64,000 nucleotides of DNA from Myxococcota bacterium (GTDB lineage Bacteria > Myxococcota_A > UBA9160 > SMWR01): assembly GCA_036336695.1 (NCBI GenBank), contig JAYZFQ010000014.1, positions 3,585 to 67,584 on the forward strand, in the 5' to 3' direction. Both the position numbers and the translations under genes were made by a program. This document shows positions 40,175 to 51,483 of this stretch, in pieces; position 1 is the first letter of the stretch, and the number at the start of each line of letters is the position of its first letter. The notes under the pieces are model-generated. The model saw only the letters and a list, made by a program, of their open reading frames with translations, had not been told where the DNA came from and ran no database searches.

Positions 40175-41815
40175 GTGCGTATTGCCATCGCCCAGGTCAA
40201 CCCCGGCGTCGGTGACCTCCAGGGGAATCGAAGGTTGGTGGAGGAGGCCGTCGAACGGGCGGTGACCCACCGGGCCGACCTGGTCGCCCTCCCGGAAATG
40301 GTGCTGACCGGTTACCCGCCGATGGACCTGCTCGAGCGCGACGGCTTCGTCCGCGACCAGTTGCGGGAACTCGAAGCGCTGCTGCCCCTTTCCCGGAAGC
40401 TCCCGATCGTGCTCGGCGCCGTGATCCCGGCCCAAGACAAACGGGGTCCGGGTCTGACGAACGCGGCGGTCCTCCTCACCGGCGGCCAACGCGCTGGGGT
40501 GCAACCCAAGACCCACCTTCCGAGCTACGACGTCTTCGACGAACGACGCTTCTTCCGCGAAGCCGAAACGCGCCAGCCGGTCTTCCTGGAAGGCCGTCGG
40601 CTCGGACTCACGGTGTGCGAGGACGCCTGGGTCGAGCCGCTCGGCTACCGCGTCGATCCGACGGGCGAACTGGCCCGCGGCGGTGCGGAACTCGTCTTGA
40701 ACCTCTCGGCGTCTCCCTGGCACGTCGACAAAGGGGCGGACCGCCGCAACATGATGGCCGACCTCGCAAAACGTCATGGCGTGCCGCTGGTCTTCGTGAA
40801 CCAGGTCGGAGGAAACGACGAACTCGTCTTCGACGGCGCGTCCCTGGCCTGCAACGCCGAGGGACAGGTCCTCGCCCAGCTCGCCCACTTCGACAGCGAC
40901 TTCCGGGTCGTCGACCTCGACACCGATCCGGTGCTGCCTTCCGGGGACATCGCGGGCCCGGACCGCGTCGCCCAACTCGAAGCGGGCCTCGTGCTCGGAA
41001 TTCGCGACTACTTCCGGAAGCAGGGCCTGCCGCCGGGAGCCGTGATCGGCTTGTCGGGCGGGATCGACTCGGCCGTCACAGCCCACCTGGCCGCCCGGGC
41101 CCTGGGCGCCGAGCGCGTGCTGGGGGTCCTCATGCCCGGCCCCTTCTCCTCCGAGCACAGCGTCAGCGACGCCGAGGAACTGGGTCGGCTGCTTGGCATC
41201 GAAGTCCGACTCGCGCCGATCGAACCGATCTACGCCGCCTACCGCTCACTCTTCGGCGCCCTCCTGGGCGAGCGCGACGACTACGGGCTCGCTCAGCAGA
41301 ACGTCCAAGCGCGCATCCGGGGCGCCATCCTGATGGCGGTGTCGAACGCGGAAAATCGCCTGGTCCTCGCCACGGGGAACAAGAGCGAACTGTCGGTCGG
41401 CTACTGCACGCTGTACGGCGACATGGTCGGAGGCCTCGCCGTGCTGGGAGACGTGTACAAGCGCGACGTGTACGCCCTCGCCCACCACGCCAACTCCGAA
41501 GCGCTCCGGATCCCGACGGGCAGCATCGAAAAACCGCCCTCGGCGGAACTCGCACCCGGGCAGGTCGACTCCGACGACCTGCCCGCCTACGACGTACTCG
41601 ACGCGATCCTCGAACAAGCCGTCGAGGGCGGACTCTCTGCCGCCGGCATCACGCCGCCCCCGGGAACCTCGGCCAAGGTCGTGCGGGACGTCGTCGCTCG
41701 GGTCGATCGCAACGAGTACAAGCGACGCCAGGCCCCGCTCGTACTCCGCACCTCACCGAAGGCATTCGGGACGGGCAGACGCCTGCCCATCGTCCATCGC
41801 TATCAGCCGGCCTGA
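40175..41815 (+). CDS. nadE: Glutamine-dependent NAD+ synthetase
   Basis: N-terminal nitrilase-type domain (RIAIAQ, LPEM) plus a synthetase domain with GLSGGIDSAV (SGGxDS). Confidence 0.95.
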   Translation: MRIAIAQVNPGVGDLQGNRRLVEEAVERAVTHRADLVALPEMVLTGYPPMDLLERDGFVRDQLRELEALLPLSRKLPIVLGAVIPAQDKRGPGLTNAAVLLTGGQRAGVQPKTHLPSYDVFDERRFFREAETRQPVFLEGRRLGLTVCEDAWVEPLGYRVDPTGELARGGAELVLNLSASPWHVDKGADRRNMMADLAKRHGVPLVFVNQVGGNDELVFDGASLACNAEGQVLAQLAHFDSDFRVVDLDTDPVLPSGDIAGPDRVAQLEAGLVLGIRDYFRKQGLPPGAVIGLSGGIDSAVTAHLAARALGAERVLGVLMPGPFSSEHSVSDAEELGRLLGIEVRLAPIEPIYAAYRSLFGALLGERDDYGLAQQNVQARIRGAILMAVSNAENRLVLATGNKSELSVGYCTLYGDMVGGLAVLGDVYKRDVYALAHHANSEALRIPTGSIEKPPSAELAPGQVDSDDLPAYDVLDAILEQAVEGGLSAAGITPPPGTSAKVVRDVVARVDRNEYKRRQAPLVLRTSPKAFGTGRRLPIVHRYQPA

Positions 41816-42312
41816 GGCGGCGCGACGGCGGCTTCGGGCACTTCGTCAGCGCTCACCGAACGCACGTTCTCGGCGCGGGCGCCCCGGGGGCCTTCCTGGA
41901 CCACGTACTCGACGACGTCCCCTTCGGAGAGACTGTCGTAGTCCGTCGCACCCAGTCCCGAGCGATGGAAGAACACCTCTTTGCCATCATCGCCGCGCAC
42001 GAAACCGAATCCGCGCTCGCGGACCATCTTCTTGATCCGGCCCTTGACCCGCGGCCCGCTGGGCGAGGGCGCCGCGTTCCGCGCACCGCGCCCGCGACGG
42101 CGACCGCGGCCCCTGGCGCGTTTCGCGCTGAACCGGTCGGTCAGCACGAACTCCTCGCGAAAGAGCTTCAGCGCCACCTCGAGATCCTGGAGCCCATCGG
42201 TCTCGGGAGACAGCAGGACTTCGTCCTCACCCGCCTCCACGATCGCGTAGCGCAGCCCCGTGTTCTTGTGGGTAACGCGTGCGCCGGACTCCACGTCTTC
42301 CAGATGCAACAT
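41803..42312 (-). CDS. Cold-shock-domain protein with an N-terminal extension and an Arg/Gly-rich linker
   Basis: C-terminal GRIKKMVRERGFGFVRGDDGKEVFFH (RNP1/RNP2-like). Before it come KRARGRGRRRGRGAR and an unassigned N-terminal domain of about 60 aa. Confidence 0.8.
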   Translation of the reverse strand: MLHLEDVESGARVTHKNTGLRYAIVEAGEDEVLLSPETDGLQDLEVALKLFREEFVLTDRFSAKRARGRGRRRGRGARNAAPSPSGPRVKGRIKKMVRERGFGFVRGDDGKEVFFHRSGLGATDYDSLSEGDVVEYVVQEGPRGARAENVRSVSADEVPEAAVAPPQAG

Positions 42313-42447: not shown

Positions 42448-43734
42448 ATGGGATCGATGCGTGTGCTGGCGGCGGTGCTCTGGGCCGCCACGGCTCACGC
42501 AGCGGGAGACTCCGACCCGCTCCGGGTCGGAACCAGCGGCGATTATCCGCCTTTCAGCGCGGCAGATGCCGGTGAACTGCGGGGTTTCGACGTCGATGTC
42601 GCCCGGGCCTACGCCGAAGAGCGGGGGCGGCCCCTCGAATTCGTGCCCTTCGCGTGGCCCGAGCTCGTCCAGGCTCTCCGGGAAGGTCGGTTCGACGTGG
42701 CGATGTCCGGAATCACGGTCCGGCCGGAACGCAGCGCCGCCGGGCGCTTCACCGTTCCGGTCACCGAGAGCGGCGCGGTCGTGCTGGTACGCAAGCCGAC
42801 GCTCGTGTCCTCGATCGACGAGGTTGACCGGCGCGGCCTGCGCCTGGGTGTCAACGCGGGGGGGCACCTCGAGCAGGTCGCGCGCACTCACTTCCCGAAG
42901 ACGACCCTCGTAGCGATTCCCAGCAACACCGAAGTGCTCCGGGCGCTCCGGTCGGGAACGGTCGACGCGGCGGTGACCGACACCCGGGAAGCCCCGCACT
43001 GGGAACGCGCGGTGGCGGACGTGCGGCGCCTGGGCCCATTCACCCGGGACCGGAAAGCCCTCCTGGTCGGCGCCGACGAGGCCACCCTCGCGTCCGACCT
43101 CGACACGTGGCTCCTGGAGCGCGAGGCCGACGGGAGCCTCGCGGCTCTCCGGCAGCGGCACTTCGGGCGCACACCGGGATCGGCGACCGCCCTCCCGCTC
43201 GAAGCACTGGTCGCGGCCCTGGACGAGCGCCTCGCGCTCATGCCGGCGGTGACGGCCGCCAAGCGGGCGGCCGTACGCCCCATCGCGGCGCCCCGGCGGG
43301 AGCGGGTGGTGGTCGCGGCGGGCATTGCCGCCGTCCACGCTGCGGCCGAGCGCTCCGGTCGGCCTGTCCCCAACGACGCGGCGGTCAAGGAGTTCTACGC
43401 GGCCCAGATCGCCGCGGCCCGCGAGATACAGATGGCGGCCGGTCGCGACCCGGATTTCACCGGCCCCGAACCGGCCCTCGATCTCGACGCCGCCCTGCGG
43501 CCCGCCCTGCTGCGTATCGGCGAGCGCATCGCCGCCCTCGTGGTTGCGCTTCCCACGGATCTCGAGCCCGGGCAGGTGACGCGCGTCTGCAACGCGGGCT
43601 TGCGCGCCGCCTGGCTGTCGGTTCCGGAACGCAACGCCCTGTGCGTGGCACTGCGCGCCCTGGCGGCTGCCCCGCGAACCGTTTTAGCGGATCAGGAACC
43701 GGGCGAGCGCACCGGCCAGCAAGGGAAGCACTAG
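42448..43734 (+). CDS. Exported cyclohexadienyl dehydratase (PheC-like SBP fold) fused to an AroQ-type chorismate mutase
   Basis: Signal peptide VLAAVLWAATAHA-AG. LRVGTSGDYPPFS, RFDVAMSGIT and DTWLLEREADGSLAALRQRHFG match PheC strings as I recall them. From about residue 245, LDERLALMPAVTAAKRAAVRPIAAPRRER...FYAAQIAAAREIQ matches the secreted AroQ pattern. Confidence 0.75.
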   Translation: MGSMRVLAAVLWAATAHAAGDSDPLRVGTSGDYPPFSAADAGELRGFDVDVARAYAEERGRPLEFVPFAWPELVQALREGRFDVAMSGITVRPERSAAGRFTVPVTESGAVVLVRKPTLVSSIDEVDRRGLRLGVNAGGHLEQVARTHFPKTTLVAIPSNTEVLRALRSGTVDAAVTDTREAPHWERAVADVRRLGPFTRDRKALLVGADEATLASDLDTWLLEREADGSLAALRQRHFGRTPGSATALPLEALVAALDERLALMPAVTAAKRAAVRPIAAPRRERVVVAAGIAAVHAAAERSGRPVPNDAAVKEFYAAQIAAAREIQMAAGRDPDFTGPEPALDLDAALRPALLRIGERIAALVVALPTDLEPGQVTRVCNAGLRAAWLSVPERNALCVALRALAAAPRTVLADQEPGERTGQQGKH

Positions 43735-44196
43735 GCAGACGGCGTACCGCGCCGCGGCGAAGGAAAAGCCGAGGATCGGTACCTCCCACGCAATCAAGCG
43801 GTGCACCGACAGCAGAGACCACGCGGTCAAGAACGCCACCACGGGTCCCGGACCCGCTCCCGCCCGGAGCATGACGGCCGCGATGGGCATCGACACAAAG
43901 GGCCCGGCGGGTGTCAGCAATCCCACCACCGAGGCAATCGCGAGTCCGGCGATCCCGCTCTCCTCGCCCAGGTACTTGCGCAGCAGGTCGTGGGGAAGCA
44001 GCACGTCCACGAAGCCTGCGACCAGGAAGGAAATGGCGATCACGAGCGCGTAGCGCAGCAACAGGGCGCTACCGCCGGACAAGCCGCGGTTCACGAGATC
44101 GCCGCCTCCCTGGAGCCAGGCGAGTGACACGAGGACGGCCAATCCGCCCGCGAGCAGGAAGAACGTGGCGTCGAACACGGTCGAACTCCGTCGCAT
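43684..44196 (-). CDS. Small (about 170 aa) permease-like membrane protein
   Basis: ATG 44196 shares a base with the upstream TGA. Four or five TM helices. The LTPAGPFVSMPIAAVMLRAGAG loop resembles predicted-permease (YraQ/DUF318-type) half-units. Confidence 0.6.
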   Translation of the reverse strand: MRRSSTVFDATFFLLAGGLAVLVSLAWLQGGGDLVNRGLSGGSALLLRYALVIAISFLVAGFVDVLLPHDLLRKYLGEESGIAGLAIASVVGLLTPAGPFVSMPIAAVMLRAGAGPGPVVAFLTAWSLLSVHRLIAWEVPILGFSFAAARYAVCLVLPLLAGALARFLIR

Positions 44197-45173
44197 CAGT
44201 AGTAGGGACTCCGGGCACGGTGACGGGGGCGGGCTTTCATTTCGGGATGCTGCCCCCGGTTCCAGAGCAACGTATCGAGCCTGCGCGCGGTCGTCTCGAC
44301 GCCGCGGCTTCGACACGCAGCGACGCAGCGCTCGACCGCGTGCAGGGCGACCGCGCGAATCTCGACCTCTTCGGGAGAACCCGGCGCGAGCCGTTCCCCC
44401 CGGTCGACACGATCCGCGAGAGCTGCCTCATAGTTCAGTACGCCTTCGCAGCGCAGCACGTGGGGAACGAGGTTGTCGGCGAACATCGTGAGCTCGTCCA
44501 GGTCGTCGAAGCGCCCGTACCCGCGACCGTCGAAGGCCGCCGCAAGGTCCGACACCGTGATCTGGGCGCGCTTGAAAAACGGAACCTCGAGGTCGCCATA
44601 GCGGGCAACGTCCCGGTAGAGCGGCATCTCGGCGAGCGCGTCCACGAGCCGCGCCGCCGACCCGGCCGCCGCCTCGACCGCGGCCTCGAAGCTGCCCCCG
44701 TACCCGGCGAGCAGCCAGGTGCCGAGGTCGCGCAGGGACCGGGCGAAGAGCGCCATCAATTCCTCGGCGTCGGCTCCCGCGTCCTGCTGCCCGAAAAGAC
44801 GCGTGCATGCCGTGGGCGTCATGTCCGCCAGCGCCTTTGCAGAGTACGGCCCAGAAGCCTCGAAGCGCTTGCGCAGCGCGGTCGCGATGGTGAAGTACCC
44901 GGAACGACCACCGGGCTTGTGAAGGGAGGGAAACCATCCCGAGCCGAAGTTCACGGCGTCCAGGGTGACCACGAAGGCGAGCGTCTCCGCGTCGTCCGGA
45001 AGGGGCGCGTGGACCGGGTCGGTGATCGGCGCGTCGGCCGTGACCAGATCGGCGGCCAGCTCCCCCAGGGCCACGGAATCGATCGAAACCTGACGGGCAC
45101 GCGCCGTGACTTCTGCGCAGCCCCGGCGCAACCGGGCAAAGACAGCTTCGGCGGCCACCGCTTCCGCGGTCAC
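44196..45173 (-). CDS. Queuosine salvage protein, DUF2419 / Qng1 family
   Basis: FFKRAQITVSDL, LTMFADNLVPHVLR, EVEIRAVA, LDTLLW and a C-terminal PRHRARSPYY parallel my recollection of human QNG1/C9orf64 (FYKRAQILVAD, ITMFADYRLPQVL, EVEIR, LDYYLW, PFHRIRCIYY). GTGA overlap with the upstream kinase. Confidence 0.85.
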   Translation of the reverse strand: MTAEAVAAEAVFARLRRGCAEVTARARQVSIDSVALGELAADLVTADAPITDPVHAPLPDDAETLAFVVTLDAVNFGSGWFPSLHKPGGRSGYFTIATALRKRFEASGPYSAKALADMTPTACTRLFGQQDAGADAEELMALFARSLRDLGTWLLAGYGGSFEAAVEAAAGSAARLVDALAEMPLYRDVARYGDLEVPFFKRAQITVSDLAAAFDGRGYGRFDDLDELTMFADNLVPHVLRCEGVLNYEAALADRVDRGERLAPGSPEEVEIRAVALHAVERCVAACRSRGVETTARRLDTLLWNRGQHPEMKARPRHRARSPYY

Positions 45174-46117
45174 GGCGCCGGGAAGAGGAGCGTGAGTGCT
45201 CCCGGCAGGACATCCACCCGAGCCGGCAGAGAGCCCAGCGGCTCCCCGTCGGCTTCTACGGGAAGCGTCGCCTCCGCCGCGTCCAGTTCGAAACTGCGGC
45301 CGCGACAGAGACGCACGATCGGGTCCTCGAGATGGACACCCCGGTAGAGCTTGTGGAGCTTGCCCGCGAGGCGCAGGCGCGAGCAGCCGCGCACGATGAC
45401 CGCGTCGAAGACCCCATCGTCGGGACGGGCGCCCGGCGCCACGGGAATTCCGCCACCGAAACTTCCGGCATTCGCCAGGACCGCGAGCACCAACGGTCCC
45501 TCGTGCACGGTTTCTCCGTCCACGCGGACCGTCGCCGGCGCCGGTCGCAGCCCCACGACCGTGCGAAGGATGGCAAGGAGAAACGCCAACGAGCCGCCGG
45601 CGCGGCCGAGCCACCCGAGCCGCCGCCCATAGGCGTCGGCCAAGGCGACCACTCGCCCACTGGCGCCAAAACTCACCTCGTTCGCGAACCAGGACGTCCG
45701 CTCGCGCCCTTCCGCGTCGCGGCAACGCACGCGCCCGGCGTCGATCGGTCGCGGTTTCGCGGTCTCGAGGGCTTCCCCCGCCAACCCGGCATCCAGAGGC
45801 AGCCCGAGGCCCCGCACCAGGTCGCCGCCCGTCCCGAAGGGCAGGAGACCGATCTGTACGGTATTGCCGAGGCCGGCGGAAAGCAGGCCCGTCGCCACTT
45901 CGGAGACGGTGCCGTCGCCCCCGGCCACGATGATCCGCTCCACCCCGGCGCGCGCGGCTTCACGCGCCACCCGCACCGCATCCCGTGGAGCCCCCGTGGG
46001 TTGCACCTCGAGGGGGCCGAGGCCCCGGCGGAGCCGCTGTTCGAGCTGCGCCCACCGACGCGCGTGGCGACCGCCACGGCTCCGGGGGTTCAGAACGACC
46101 AGGGTCTTCGCCGGCAC
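45170..46117 (-). CDS. Diacylglycerol-kinase catalytic-domain (YegS/BmrU-type) kinase
   Basis: LVVLNPRSRGG, IIVAGGDGTVSEV and LLPFGTGGDL. Confidence 0.85.
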   Translation of the reverse strand: MPAKTLVVLNPRSRGGRHARRWAQLEQRLRRGLGPLEVQPTGAPRDAVRVAREAARAGVERIIVAGGDGTVSEVATGLLSAGLGNTVQIGLLPFGTGGDLVRGLGLPLDAGLAGEALETAKPRPIDAGRVRCRDAEGRERTSWFANEVSFGASGRVVALADAYGRRLGWLGRAGGSLAFLLAILRTVVGLRPAPATVRVDGETVHEGPLVLAVLANAGSFGGGIPVAPGARPDDGVFDAVIVRGCSRLRLAGKLHKLYRGVHLEDPIVRLCRGRSFELDAAEATLPVEADGEPLGSLPARVDVLPGALTLLFPAP

Positions 46118-46181
46118 GGGCGAAAGGTTACACGAGCGGCATGGCGCGTTTCCGGGGAAACGCCGGCTCGACCGCCCGGTA

Positions 46182-48461
46182 TCAGTTTCGCGCGCGGAGC
46201 AGGTTCAGCGCCGAACCCGCCCGGAACCAATCGATCTGCTCTTCCGACATCGAGTGGCTGACGTCCACCTCGTCGCGGCTCCCGTCTTCGTGGTGGAACA
46301 CCGCCTTCAGGGTTCGACCCTGGGCCAGATCGGCGAGTCCCGTCACGCTCACCCGGTCCGTCTCACGGACCTTTTCGTAGTCGGCCGGGTCCACGAAGGC
46401 AAGCGGCAATACGCCCTGCTTCTTCAGGTTCGACTCGTGAATCCGCGCAAAGCTGCGCACGATGACCGCTGCTGCGCCGAGCAGACGCGGCGACATCGCC
46501 GCGTGCTCTCGGCTCGAACCCTCGCCGTAGTTCTCATCCCCCACCACCACCCAGCGCTTTCCCGCAGCCTTGTAGCGCTTGGCGGTCTCGGAAAACGCGA
46601 CACTCGTATCGCCCGAGAGCTGGTCGAGGCCGTGTCCGGTCTCTTCCGTGAAGGCGTTCACGGCTCCTGTGAACATGTTGTCGCTGATGTTCGTCAGGTG
46701 CCCCCGGAAACGGAGCCACTTTCCCGCCGGTGAAATGTGGTCCGTCGTGCACTTGCCCGCCGCCTTGAGGAGCAGCGGAACCTCGACGAAATCCTCGCCG
46801 TCCCAGGCGGCGAACGGCTCGAGGACTTCCAGGCGCTCGCTCCCCGGCGCGACGACCACGCTCGCGCCCTTTCGCTCCTCCGGAGGCGGCGGGGCCAGGT
46901 AGCCCTCGAAGCTCTCCACGAAGCCGCGCCCCGGAACCTCGGGCGCCGTCGCCGGCGGCTCGAGGCGGTAGCGCTCGCCGCTCTCCGCAACCAGTTCGTC
47001 GGCCAGCGGATTCACACCGAGATCACCCGCGAGCGCGAAGGCCACCACCACTTCGGGGCTCGCGATGAACGAAAGCGTTCCCGAATTGCCGTCGTTGCGG
47101 CGGCGGAAATTCCGGTTGTACGAATTGATGATCGAGTTCGACTCGCCCTCGGCAACGTCGTCCCGCTTCCACTGGCCGATGCACGGGCCGCAGGCGTTCG
47201 CCAGCACGACAGCGCCGATGGACTCGAAGTCCTGCATCTGCCCGTCTCTCTGGATCGTGCGGTGGATCTGTTCCGAACCCGGCGTCACCCAGAGTTTCGT
47301 CTTCGCCCGGGCGCCGTGACGCGCAGCCTGACGCGCCACATCCGCCGCGCGCTCCAGATCTTCGTAGGAGGAGTTCGTGCAGCTACCGATCAGTGCGGAG
47401 GAAAGGGCTTCCGGGTACCCGTTTTCCCGCGCGTCGGATGCCATGCGCGATACCGGCCGCGCCAGGTCCGGCGTGTGAGGACCCACCACATGGGGCTCCA
47501 GCGCGGACAGGTCGATCTCCACCACCTCGTCGTAGAAGCGTTCGGGATCCTCGTGGACCTCGGGGTCCGCGCGAAGCAATTCCGCGCGCTTTTCCGCGAG
47601 TTCGGCGATCTCGCCGCGCGAGGTGGCGCGCAGGTAGGTCGCCATGCGCTCGTCGAAGGGAAAGATGGACGTCGTGGCGCCGAGCTCCGCGCCCATGTTC
47701 GTGATCGTGCCCTTCCCCGTGCAGCTGATAGACGCTGTGCCTGGACCGAAGTACTCGATCACGCGGTTGGTCCCGCCCTTCACGGTGAGCACCTCGCAGA
47801 CCTTCAAGATCACGTCCTTCGGCGCCGTCCAGCCCGACAGGGATCCCGTGAGGTGAACACCGACCAGGTTCGGCTGCAACACTTCCCAGGGAAAACCCGC
47901 CATCACGTCGACGGCGTCGGCTCCACCGACGCCGCAGGCAAACATGCCGAGTCCACCGGCGTTGGGCGTGTGAGAGTCGGTTCCGATCATCATGCCGCCC
48001 GGGAAGGCGTACTTCTCGAGCACCACCTGGTGGATGATGCCCGCGCCGGGACCCCAGAAACCGATGCCGTAACGTGCAGCCCCACTGCGAAGGAATTCGT
48101 AGACCTCGCCATTGACGTCCTGGGCGACGCGAAGATCGTCACCCGCACCGACACGGGCCTGGATCAGGTGATCGCAGTGCACCGTCGTCGGGACTGCCGT
48201 TTCCTCGCGACCCGCGAGCATGAACTGGAGCAACGCCATCTGCGCGGTGGCGTCCTGCATCGCGATCCGATCGGGACACGTCTGCACGTAACTGCGGCCG
48301 GGGGCGATTTCCGTCGCTGCGGGATCGGCGAGGTGGCCGAGAAAGATCTTTTCGGCGTAGGTCAGCGGCCGCGCGAGGCGTTCCCGCACGACGGCGACGT
48401 TGCGTTCCAAGCTTTCGTAGACGGAGCCCACCAGCTCCGGAGTGGTCTCGATTGCGCCCAT
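46182..48461 (-). CDS. Aconitate hydratase (about 760 aa, mitochondrial-type)
   Basis: DRIAMQDATAQMA, VHCDHLI, IGTDSHTPNAGG, NACGPCIGQW and SSREHAA. AGGAGG lies upstream of ATG 48461. Confidence 0.95.
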   Translation of the reverse strand: MGAIETTPELVGSVYESLERNVAVVRERLARPLTYAEKIFLGHLADPAATEIAPGRSYVQTCPDRIAMQDATAQMALLQFMLAGREETAVPTTVHCDHLIQARVGAGDDLRVAQDVNGEVYEFLRSGAARYGIGFWGPGAGIIHQVVLEKYAFPGGMMIGTDSHTPNAGGLGMFACGVGGADAVDVMAGFPWEVLQPNLVGVHLTGSLSGWTAPKDVILKVCEVLTVKGGTNRVIEYFGPGTASISCTGKGTITNMGAELGATTSIFPFDERMATYLRATSRGEIAELAEKRAELLRADPEVHEDPERFYDEVVEIDLSALEPHVVGPHTPDLARPVSRMASDARENGYPEALSSALIGSCTNSSYEDLERAADVARQAARHGARAKTKLWVTPGSEQIHRTIQRDGQMQDFESIGAVVLANACGPCIGQWKRDDVAEGESNSIINSYNRNFRRRNDGNSGTLSFIASPEVVVAFALAGDLGVNPLADELVAESGERYRLEPPATAPEVPGRGFVESFEGYLAPPPPEERKGASVVVAPGSERLEVLEPFAAWDGEDFVEVPLLLKAAGKCTTDHISPAGKWLRFRGHLTNISDNMFTGAVNAFTEETGHGLDQLSGDTSVAFSETAKRYKAAGKRWVVVGDENYGEGSSREHAAMSPRLLGAAAVIVRSFARIHESNLKKQGVLPLAFVDPADYEKVRETDRVSVTGLADLAQGRTLKAVFHHEDGSRDEVDVSHSMSEEQIDWFRAGSALNLLRARN

Positions 48462-49884: not shown

Positions 49885-49910
49885 TGGACCAGTGGTAGCA
49901 TGCGCGTGGC

Positions 49911-50771
49911 ATGGAGCCGACACCGCGCAACGTTCCCGGGTCCACGGGGTTCGACCTGAACCTGCTCGAATGGAGCACCGAAGGCGTCCCCCTCCTCCTG
50001 CTCCACGGCTTCGGCAACGAGGCGCACATCTGGGACGACTTCGCGCCCGCCGTCGCTCCGTATTACCGGACCCTCGCCTTGGACCACCGCGGGCACGGGG
50101 ACTCCGGATGGGACCCGGAAGCCCGCTATGACCTGGATTTTTTCGTCGACGATGTCGAGTCCGTAACGGAAGCGCTCGGCATCGAACGCCTCGTTCTGGT
50201 CGGTCACTCCCTCGGCGGTCGTGTCTCGACCCTCTTCGCGGGCCGCCACCCGGAACGCGTCGCCGGCCTCGTTCTGGTGGATATCGGCCCCGAGTTGGAT
50301 GCCCGCGGCGTCCTGCGCATTCGCGAGGAAACCCAGTCCAGCCTGAGTCCGATCTTCGACTCCACCGAAGGCTACGCGCGCCTCCTCTCCCTGCACTACC
50401 CCGCGGCCACGGCAGACGCCATCCAGCGCATGACACGCCACGGGCTGCGCAAGCGCCCCGACAGCCGCTACGAGTTGAAGCAGGATCCAGCGCTGCGCGG
50501 CTCCATTTCACGAGACGCCAGCGAGGCCGCCTTGCGGGAGGAACGCCTCGTCCAGGAGCAGTGGGACGCGCTGGCGAAGATCCCGGCACCGACGCTCGTC
50601 GTGCGTGGCGCGGCATCCGATGTCTTTGCTCCGGACGTCGCAGACCGGATGGCCGACGAGGTTCTCCAGAACGGCCAGCTCGCCGTCGTCGGCCAGGCAG
50701 GCCACTCGGTGATGACGGACAACCCGGAAGGATTTCGCGATGCCGTGACGGAGTTCGTCCTCGCCGAGTAG
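49911..50771 (+). CDS. Alpha/beta-fold hydrolase
   Basis: LLLLHGFG, GHSLGG (nucleophile elbow) and a C-terminal GHSVMTDNP. Confidence 0.85.
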   Translation: MEPTPRNVPGSTGFDLNLLEWSTEGVPLLLLHGFGNEAHIWDDFAPAVAPYYRTLALDHRGHGDSGWDPEARYDLDFFVDDVESVTEALGIERLVLVGHSLGGRVSTLFAGRHPERVAGLVLVDIGPELDARGVLRIREETQSSLSPIFDSTEGYARLLSLHYPAATADAIQRMTRHGLRKRPDSRYELKQDPALRGSISRDASEAALREERLVQEQWDALAKIPAPTLVVRGAASDVFAPDVADRMADEVLQNGQLAVVGQAGHSVMTDNPEGFRDAVTEFVLAE

Positions 50772-50820
50772 CCCGACCGGCAGGGCGTTCCCCGAGGCCC
50801 TGCTAGACTGCGCACCAGCG

Positions 50821-51483
50821 ATGCTTGGATTCGAGAGTCCTGCGAATCACGTGCGGGCAGTCGCCGCTGCCCTGTTCGCGCTGGGGATCACCGCATCCTC
50901 TTCCCCGGCAGAGCAGTCTCCAGAAACGGCGGCACAACCCGCCGAGATCGTCGACGAGCTCGACGCAGCGCTCACCGAGGTGATGAAGAACGGCGAAGAA
51001 CTCGGCTACTCCGGGCGCTTCGAACAGCTGGAACCCATCATTCGGCGACTCTTCGACCTGGACTTCATGGCGGAGAAAATCGCGGGGCGGCACTGGAAGA
51101 CCATGACCCCGGAAGAACAGGCGCGTCTCGTCGATACCTTCAGCCGCTACACGATCGCGAACTATGCGGGGCGCTTCTCGAGCTGGTCGGGCCAGGAATT
51201 CCGGCGGCTGGGAGAGGAGCCGGCGGCACGCGGCACCGTCGTGGTTCGGACCGAGCTCCTCGACCCCGATGGTGAGAACGTGAAGCTCGACTACCGCTTG
51301 CGACGAACGCCAGCGCGCGGCTGGCAGATCGTCGACATCTACTTCAACGGGACCGTGAGCGAACTCGCCCTCCGCCGATCAGAGTACTCGTCCCTGATCA
51401 AACGCGAAGGGGTGCCCGCCCTCCTCACCGCGCTCGACGAGCGCATTGCGAAGCTCGCCGCGGGAACGTCGGACGGAAGCTGA
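50821..51483 (+). CDS. mlaC: MlaC/Ttg2D-family lipid-binding periplasmic protein
   Basis: Signal peptide, then FDLDFMAEKIAGRHWKTMTPEEQARLVDTFSRYTIANYA and WQIVDIYFNGTVSEL, which are typical of MlaC/HpnM. Confidence 0.8.
   Translation: MLGFESPANHVRAVAAALFALGITASSSPAEQSPETAAQPAEIVDELDAALTEVMKNGEELGYSGRFEQLEPIIRRLFDLDFMAEKIAGRHWKTMTPEEQARLVDTFSRYTIANYAGRFSSWSGQEFRRLGEEPAARGTVVVRTELLDPDGENVKLDYRLRRTPARGWQIVDIYFNGTVSELALRRSEYSSLIKREGVPALLTALDERIAKLAAGTSDGS

Follow-up and report, generated by a model that had tools for sequence, protein, structure and literature searches.

The Qng1 family of N-glycosylases, its bacterial members included, has already been described, and the characterised enzyme prefers queuosine 5'-monophosphate (Q-5'-MP) as its substrate (PMC9881137). 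That substrate depends on a kinase which has been termed 'unidentified' and is suspected to be membrane-associated (PMC9881137, PMC12207525); this has been an acknowledged gap since 2023, in humans and microbes alike, and we found no later identification of the queuosine (Q) kinase in the literature searched. Expressed alone in E. coli, an Acidobacteriota Qng1 was unable to salvage Q (PMC11130926, Fig. S5 legend), and a transporter encoded beside an Acidobacteriota qng1 carried preQ0 and preQ1, not Q (PMC11130926). The same study, from the de Crécy-Lagard laboratory, mentions no kinase in its main text and PF00781 is missing from its supplements, but its Table S2 does list PF03773 under 'physical clustering with Qng1' (five sequences). 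A related two-step scheme is provided by PsuK and PsuG of E. coli, where a modified nucleoside is phosphorylated and the nucleotide is then split (PMC9247573). Here we describe a locus in a 64-kb stretch of DNA (64,000 nucleotides, hereafter the window; 68% G+C) from a Myxococcota bacterium, contig JAYZFQ010000014.1, in which a gene for a YegS/Rv2252/BmrU-family kinase overlaps the start of a gene for a Qng1-like protein. A preliminary description of the locus knew of no account of the gene trio, and the kinase–Qng1 pairing appears to be undescribed: we found no account of a DAGK-fold kinase beside Qng1 in the literature searched, the clustering of Qng1 with PF03773 alone having been catalogued before.

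The kinase gene, the Qng1-like gene and a short permease gene lie on the minus strand and are chained by GTGA and TGATG start/stop overlaps (Table 1), an arrangement already proposed in the preliminary description and borne out by direct reading of the sequence; the Pfam and NCBIfam matches likewise agree with its family calls for all three proteins. Single 4-nt overlaps between genes are frequent in GC-rich genomes, but the kinase/Qng1 junction goes beyond chance in being kept over ~85 related loci. Homologues of Qng1 number in the thousands in metagenomes and occur in at least 592 GTDB species genomes, the loci retrieved being the best 80 of these, and in a Qng1-anchored survey we searched the window proteins against the open reading frames (ORFs) of 84 loci with flanks of 8–10 kb. 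In 52 of these 84 loci the gene immediately before Qng1 is that of the kinase, and an NTGA start/stop overlap joins the two in ~40 of 54 loci. Because the lineage is broadly syntenic, we chose the other gene pairs of the surrounding block as an internal control. Seen from the kinase, Qng1 is directly adjacent in 81/81 loci (three apparently 'separated' cases were coordinate-parsing artefacts, as checked against the junction data), and seen from Qng1 with a kinase upstream in 83/86. The control pairs are adjacent in only 33–67% of cases: 17/52 for aconitase and kinase, 43/70 for Qng1 and the SBP_bac_3 gene with the permease permitted between them, 33/49 for SBP_bac_3 and a cold-shock-domain (CSD) gene, and 25/48 for the CSD gene and NadE. 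The kinase–Qng1 pair is the tightest unit of the block. The trio as a whole is less constant than the preliminary description implied, since the pair is strongly kept and translationally coupled but no more than 32 of 72 pairs (~44%) have the permease as the next gene.

The relationship is equally strict when approached from the kinase by a metagenome scan with the kinase alignment. Among kinase homologues of at least 41% identity with downstream DNA on the contig, Qng1 is the next gene in 39/39, whereas at 38% identity or below it is next in none of ~28. These unlinked homologues come from genomes of 33–77% G+C and stand among unrelated genes; the nearest of them are neighboured by unrelated housekeeping genes that give no clue to the ancestral function. 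The deepest linked case (L077) is a lower-GC metagenome-assembled genome (MAG) labelled 'UBA6930', with a kinase of 30% identity, an ATGA overlap, a Qng1 of 47% identity and a 175-aa permease. The linked kinases, that of L077 included, have in common the residues L79, S149, S153, F220, A227, L250, Y258 and E292 (window numbering), which are missing from the unlinked YegS-like homologues, and for this reason we regard them as a dedicated orthologous group. We rely on these signature residues because the rooting of neighbour-joining trees, built for Qng1 and for the kinase, was too poor to demonstrate that the linked group is monophyletic. No member of the kinase group was found without Qng1 (81 loci), while three loci (L013, L033 and L036) keep the block, have lost the kinase and hold no detectable remnant of it. 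Such one-sided loss, in which Qng1 may stand by itself but the kinase does not, is as expected if the kinase only feeds Qng1. For each of the two proteins, the best 120 homologues include no kinase–Qng1 fusion.

The Qng1-like protein matches PF10343 (Q_salvage) over profile positions 5–285 of 285 (2.6e-58; 198.3 bits, cut-off 25) and aligns over its full length with Sphaerobacter thermophilus StQng1 (39% identity, E 1e-47). To that extent its earlier labelling as a Qng1 along its whole length stands; the label 'eukaryote-type' does not, as the sequence motifs place it in a distinct, widespread bacterial subfamily of at least 592 species genomes, with a putative substrate, in which residues Y232 and K233 are replaced (see below). 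Taking residue roles and StQng1 numbering from PMC9881137 and an alignment of 119 subfamily sequences, we find the catalytic Asp and Lys of the helix-hairpin-helix (HhH) fold, D231 and K199 (D233 and K201 in the window), invariant in 119/119. The 7-deazaguanine-binding residues D298 and W302 (window D300 and W304) are also invariant, the aliphatic position 203 is I205 in the window, Y93 and Q306 are nearly invariant, and the C-terminal Tyr (Y323) is kept, the window protein ending in SPYY.

The explanation of these observations that we prefer, tentatively and as something short of probable, is that the two enzymes, kinase and Qng1-like glycosylase, are co-translated as a dedicated unit acting on a Q-type (7-deazaguanine) nucleoside. 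The kinase would phosphorylate the ribose 5'-OH of the free nucleoside, and the Qng1-like glycosylase would then split the nucleotide into free base and ribose-5-phosphate; where the half-size permease is present it would move the nucleoside in or the base out. Such a relay finds support in the tightness and coupling of the pair, the dedicated kinase group and the asymmetric losses, and also in the biochemical dependence of Qng1 on a 5'-phosphate, in the inability of a lone bacterial Qng1 to salvage Q in E. coli, which a missing kinase partner could explain, and in the precedent of PsuK/PsuG. What the sequences show is the anatomy of the genes, the families to which they belong, catalytic residues that are intact, a tight coupling throughout the clade and a kinase group confined to the neighbourhood of Qng1. 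The substrates of the kinase and of the Qng1 subfamily, and the physiological end point, are what we infer from this comparative evidence.

The relay would more likely serve to turn over, dispose of or recycle Q-type nucleosides than to put queuine directly back into tRNA, because the lineage seems to have de novo Q synthesis and a preQ1-type Tgt. Searches with E. coli QueA, QueC, QueD, QueE, QueF and Tgt against the window and the 84 loci gave only four tgt matches, none of them in the window, although 64 kb says nothing on absence from the genome. Two matches belong to loci that carry the kinase–Qng1 pair (L042 and L046), where tgt lies 4.4 kb away and encodes DEC and GGVSVGE, a preQ1-type pocket that differs from the queuine-type pattern GG[LS][AS]G (PMC11570991). 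The published profiles point the same way: genomes in which PF03773 clusters with Qng1 are de novo Q producers in 5/5 cases, and PF00497, also listed as clustering with Qng1, has eight sequences of which 87.5% are de novo (PMC11130926 Table S2). We suppose the five PF03773 genomes to belong to the present clade, since in our survey the permease is found only there. The lineage thus probably synthesises Q de novo and does without a queuine-type Tgt, and the queuosine salvage of the preliminary description is doubtful as far as it means salvage into tRNA. The chemistry of a kinase followed by a glycosylase is not undermined by the de novo profile, because PsuK/PsuG shows that such a sequence can serve disposal or recycling.

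The permease is an optional third component. It matches ArsP_1 (PF03773; 2.2e-11, 43.9 bits, cut-off 32.3) at profile positions 12–130 of 294, and we call it half-size because only this first half of the profile is covered, the full two-half form having ~300–350 aa; the rest of the window holds no gene for the missing half. Its only matches to named NCBIfam models fall far short of the cut-offs and are to the efflux transporters SaoE and SO_0444. For this reason import of queuosine, as first suggested, is an assumption, and the permease may equally well export the released base.

There are several lines of evidence that weigh against the relay: the pair is confined to a single syntenic lineage, there is no kinase in ~33 other Qng1 contexts, the kinase has a lipid-kinase-like fold, two phosphate contacts of Qng1 are lost, the permease is present in only some of the pairs, and no regulatory link to Q was found. 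On the last point, the window and 15 related loci hold no detectable preQ1 riboswitch or other Rfam family, nor does the 6-kb region when scanned at a permissive threshold. The evidence for the relay is comparative and lineage-restricted, and the kinase fold partly contradicts it. The kinase matches DAGK_cat (PF00781, 2.7e-26) and YegS_C (PF19279, 4.9e-36), its GGDGT and DGE motifs are invariant in the kinase alignment, and it passes the lipid-kinase subfamily model TIGR00147 (135.8 bits, cut-off 118.65), while failing all the equivalog models (YegS, DgkB-type diacylglycerol (DAG) kinase and MamU; 50–131 bits against cut-offs of 274–505). An AlphaFold (AF2) model (pLDDT 88.8, pTM 0.87) gives template-modelling (TM) scores of 0.79–0.81 with human sphingosine kinase 1, 0.72–0.77 with DgkB, YegS and BmrU, and ~0.5 with NAD kinase, and residues 152–189 of the model form a hydrophobic helical hairpin. 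In this model, then, the protein looks like a lipid kinase, and the substrates described for the DAGK_cat/YegS family in the literature searched are those of lipid kinases only.

The kinase-linked loci belong to one lineage, labelled mostly Myxococcota or 'Deltaproteobacteria', with extensive macro-synteny of unrelated housekeeping genes. Outside it, 29 Qng1 loci of at least eight other phyla (Actinomycetota, Acidimicrobiales, Planctomycetota, Anaerolineales, Latescibacterota, Thermoanaerobaculia, Thermomicrobiales, 'Trueperaceae', Gemmatimonadota and others) have neither kinase nor permease within 10 kb. Their neighbours are diverse, and a Pfam scan of 107 of them revealed no recurring kinase of any family; TGT, PNP_UDP_1, PGM_PMM and EamA occur twice each. 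Four Sphaerobacter-type Qng1 loci (L167–L170) also lack DAGK_cat. It is likely that some of the lineage's own labels are wrong: seven MAGs with the whole syntenic block (L011, L022, L034, L036, L039, L047 and L054) have record titles naming Spirochaetales, Spirochaetaceae or Opitutales, and 'MYXO' occurs in one of the isolate names; since the entire block is common to them these titles are probably binning or naming errors for Myxococcota-like bins.

The rival explanation that best accounts for these points is that the linkage is incidental, the kinase being an ordinary YegS/BmrU-type enzyme for a lipid or amphiphile (DAG, ceramide, a sphingoid base or phosphatidylglycerol) and the genes being held together by their overlap and by vertical inheritance with no common pathway. 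The family, the fold and the hydrophobic hairpin of the kinase agree with this, as does the confinement of the pair to a clade in which aconitase, M20 peptidase, SBP/chorismate mutase, CSD and NadE genes are syntenic too, and the lack of a kinase partner of Qng1 in other phyla; given ~30 independent Qng1 contexts, one chance kinase neighbour would be unsurprising. Overlapping genes are moreover intrinsically difficult to part, so that some of the contrast in adjacency may be mechanical and not selective. The lipid-transport genes mlaC and, in relatives, mlaA a few kb upstream in the block would also fit, but the lipid theme is faint, as M20 peptidase and aconitase genes lie between them and the kinase. 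Against incidental linkage stand the adjacency of the pair, far tighter than that of the control pairs, the absence of the kinase group from any locus other than those of Qng1 (kinase kept and Qng1 lost in 0/81), and the character of the kinase as a fast-evolving subfamily with a signature of its own, not a clade copy of a broad housekeeping orthologue. We rate an incidental lipid kinase only slightly below the nucleoside-kinase relay in likelihood, and regard it as less likely than not that this protein of YegS/BmrU fold truly acts as a 5'-kinase on queuosine (7-deazaguanosine).

The phosphate end of the Qng1 site also departs from what the relay would lead one to expect. Five 5'-phosphate/ribose contacts (F75, R80, Y232, K233 and Q306) are described as highly or strictly conserved, and alanine mutants of Y232 and K233 impair StQng1 function (PMC9881137). 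Throughout the subfamily Y232 is replaced by N (window N234) and K233 by L (L235), giving FADNL in place of FADY[KR]; F75 is invariantly changed to S or G (NFGSGWFP in place of NF[CS]FW) and R80 is variable, which leaves Q306 as the sole contact kept. The aromatic pocket for the cyclopentenediol 7-substituent (W48, Y93, W94 and W299) keeps only Y93, position 48 being L, W or Y, position 94 F, L or R, and position 299 variable. Kinase-linked and unlinked members of the subfamily are the same at these sites, and the human enzyme retains the St-type motifs.

These replacements raise the possibility that the genes are coupled for some other chemistry, with the remodelled Qng1 acting on another guanine-like nucleoside or nucleotide (a preQ1 or preQ0 ribonucleotide, epoxy-Q, or a purine nucleotide in deoxy or damaged form, for example), or with the kinase acting on the released base or another intermediate and the ArsP-type permease exporting the product. 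It draws on the loss of W48, W94, W299, F75, Y232 and K233 alongside invariant D298, D231 and K199, on the preQ1-type Tgt and de novo profile of the lineage, on the preQ0/preQ1 specificity of the Acidobacteriota transporter (PMC11130926) and on the efflux character of the permease's named matches; yet there is no direct evidence for an alternative substrate, basic residues persist near the phosphate site (an RKR-type hairpin, Q306, H316 and R317), and a subfamily member directly after a tgt without the Val gatekeeper (L083, below) fits queuine, so that we consider this unlikely.

Several of the Qng1 loci outside the clade have features of their own. In a Thermoanaerobaculia MAG (L083, 7958–10963) tgt ends 15 nt before Qng1, and its product has the pocket GGSLGAE, which lacks the Val gatekeeper, is one residue shorter than in E. 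coli and is near, but not an exact match to, the queuine-type pattern. In an Actinomycetota MAG (L080, 8860–10936) the adjacent gene, transcribed divergently from Qng1, is tgt-like but highly diverged in sequence, with DYC replacing DEC and no equivalent of Glu235. On sequence grounds both neighbours support a tie of the Qng1 subfamily to Q metabolism in other phyla. A recurring gene set stands 3' of Qng1 in L068, L070 and L076, complete in the first two; the Pfam matches of the loci as a whole suggest that it may hold a phosphomutase (PGM_PMM) and a nucleoside phosphorylase (PNP_UDP_1), with a flavour of nucleoside catabolism and no kinase. In the four Sphaerobacter/Thermomicrobia loci (L167–L170) the St-type Qng1 is seemingly monocistronic, with NDK 1.5–3.5 kb off in 2/4, an adenosine-deaminase-family gene divergently adjacent in 2/4, and major facilitator superfamily (MFS) transporters nearby.

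Table 1. Positions of the kinase, Qng1-like and permease genes, their junctions and neighbouring genes in the window
Feature	Position	Strand	Remarks
YegS/Rv2252/BmrU-family kinase (DAGK_cat + YegS_C)	45170..46117	-	315 aa, GTG start; GGDGT at 66-70, DGE at 290-292
Qng1/DUF2419-family N-glycosylase homologue, 'NFGSGWFP / FADNL' subfamily	44196..45173	-	325 aa, GTG start
Half-size ArsP_1 (PF03773) permease, optional third gene	43684..44196	-	170 aa, ATG start, ~4-5 hydrophobic segments
GTGA junction, kinase TGA / Qng1 GTG	45170..45173	-	4-nt overlap, read directly in sequence
TGATG junction, Qng1 TGA / permease ATG	44194..44198	-	A at 44196 shared, read directly in sequence
Aconitase	46182-48461	-	759 aa, upstream of kinase
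CSD protein	41803-42312	-	169 aa, CSD at residues 90-152
SBP_bac_3 protein with chorismate-mutase-like C-terminal part	42448-43734	+	428 aa, convergent on permease
Alpha/beta hydrolase and MlaC	49899-51483	+	same syntenic block, 4-6 kb upstream of kinase

The gene starts and lengths chosen are supported by homologues of agreeing length: P0001 (325 aa, 99% identity to the Qng1-like protein, coverage 100%), P0121 (315 aa, 89% identity to the kinase) and permease homologues of 164–175 aa. Long ORFs of 260–480 aa in the same region, among them 43911–45347 (+), 44428–45213 (-) and 45332–46261 (+), were rejected as shadow ORFs, antisense or out of frame as is usual at 68% G+C, and the ORFs of 509 aa and 210 aa listed in the frames of Qng1 and the permease run on upstream past the real starts. 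A promoter and terminator scan gave no signal over shuffled expectation.

Nearly all kinase-linked loci have the gene order aconitase, kinase, Qng1, (permease), SBP/chorismate mutase, CSD, NadE, and to judge from their families the block neighbours are housekeeping genes whose functions are unrelated. Upstream, on the same strand as the kinase, are aconitase, 64 nt from the kinase, and M20 peptidase; downstream of the three genes are also found NAD synthetase, MaoC and aldo-keto reductase. The 3' ends of the SBP_bac_3 and permease genes overlap by 51 nt (43684–43734), and in relatives without the permease the SBP_bac_3 gene instead overlaps the Qng1 3' end by ~7 nt. Its product resembles a periplasmic fusion of the cyclohexadienyl dehydratase/chorismate mutase type, the CM_2 match in relatives being weak. 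The CSD gene is kept in 42/44 related loci, and the protein is unusually long, an N-terminal extension and an Arg/Gly-rich linker (RGRGRRRGRGARN) preceding the CSD. Relatives (L001, 649–3155) add MlaA to the alpha/beta hydrolase and MlaC, the Mla genes being concerned with phospholipid trafficking. Two classes of aconitase fill the one slot beside the kinase, the 759-aa type of the window and most relatives and the type seen in L077 (6048–8981), which is AcnA/IRP-like, ~900 aa or longer (a 977-aa ORF is listed) and matches the window aconitase at E 9e-57.

The coupling of the kinase to Qng1 is new to the literature searched, and if functional it would be a variant of the scheme of a kinase plus a nucleotide glycosidase. 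A kinase that is coupled to Qng1 and found only with Qng1 is a concrete candidate protein for the gap in the making of Q-5'-MP. Were the relay to hold, it would put a first enzyme to the step of Q salvage ascribed to an 'unidentified kinase' and, within the literature searched, the first nucleoside substrate for the DAGK_cat lipid-kinase family, extending that fold to nucleosides; it would be a second disposal route of the PsuK/PsuG kind for a modified RNA nucleoside, and would narrow the search for the human enzyme, as the eukaryotic Q kinase might then be looked for in the DAGK_cat family, for instance among relatives of sphingosine, ceramide and acylglycerol kinases. If the kinase does not act on nucleosides, the genes form an ordinary lineage-specific operon, and the occurrence of a divergent Qng1 subfamily in de novo Q producers would still call for an explanation.

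Compared with the characterised Qng1/QNG1 enzymes (7UK3 and 7U91 of Sphaerobacter thermophilus, 7UGK of human), the window protein shares the catalytic HhH Asp and Lys, the Asp and Trp that bind 7-deazaguanine, the aliphatic stacking residue and the free C-terminal Tyr, but differs in its motifs NFGSGWFP and FADNLVPH, with F75, Y232 and K233 replaced, R80 variable and the pocket tryptophans unconserved. It also differs in occurring in apparent de novo Q producers, and in being preceded by a kinase gene in this clade, which is not so for the characterised St-type genes. The kinase in turn has the two-domain architecture, the GGDGT and DGE motifs and the TIGR00147 membership of YegS, DgkB, BmrU and sphingosine kinase. 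Unlike YegS, DgkB and BmrU it falls in an orthologous group with its own signature residues and is encoded only before Qng1, in an operon without a lipid-metabolism partner.

The described routes of queuine salvage, the direct route of Chlamydia (QPTR with a queuine-type Tgt) and the indirect route of C. difficile (QueK with QueL), likewise place a base-liberating hydrolase beside a membrane transporter. The present locus differs from both, having no QPTR, QueT, QueK or QueL and an ArsP_1 half-permease as its transporter, and the Tgt of its relatives is preQ1-type. The scheme that we propose is the same as that of E. coli PsuK (yeiC) and PsuG (yeiN), in which a dedicated kinase is followed by a 5'-monophosphate glycosidase that yields base and ribose-5-phosphate from a modified RNA nucleoside, with a transporter gene co-located; the transporter of these pseudouridine catabolic genes is psuT (yeiM). 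As with PsuK/PsuG, the kinase and glycosidase genes of the window are adjacent and co-directional, here with the 4-nt overlap and the adjacency across all 81 loci. There is no homology between the two systems, PsuK being a PfkB-type kinase and PsuG an unrelated C-glycosidase, whereas the window encodes a DAGK-fold kinase and an HhH-fold N-glycosylase whose activity is predicted only; if the prediction is right, the two systems would carry out the same two steps with different enzymes.

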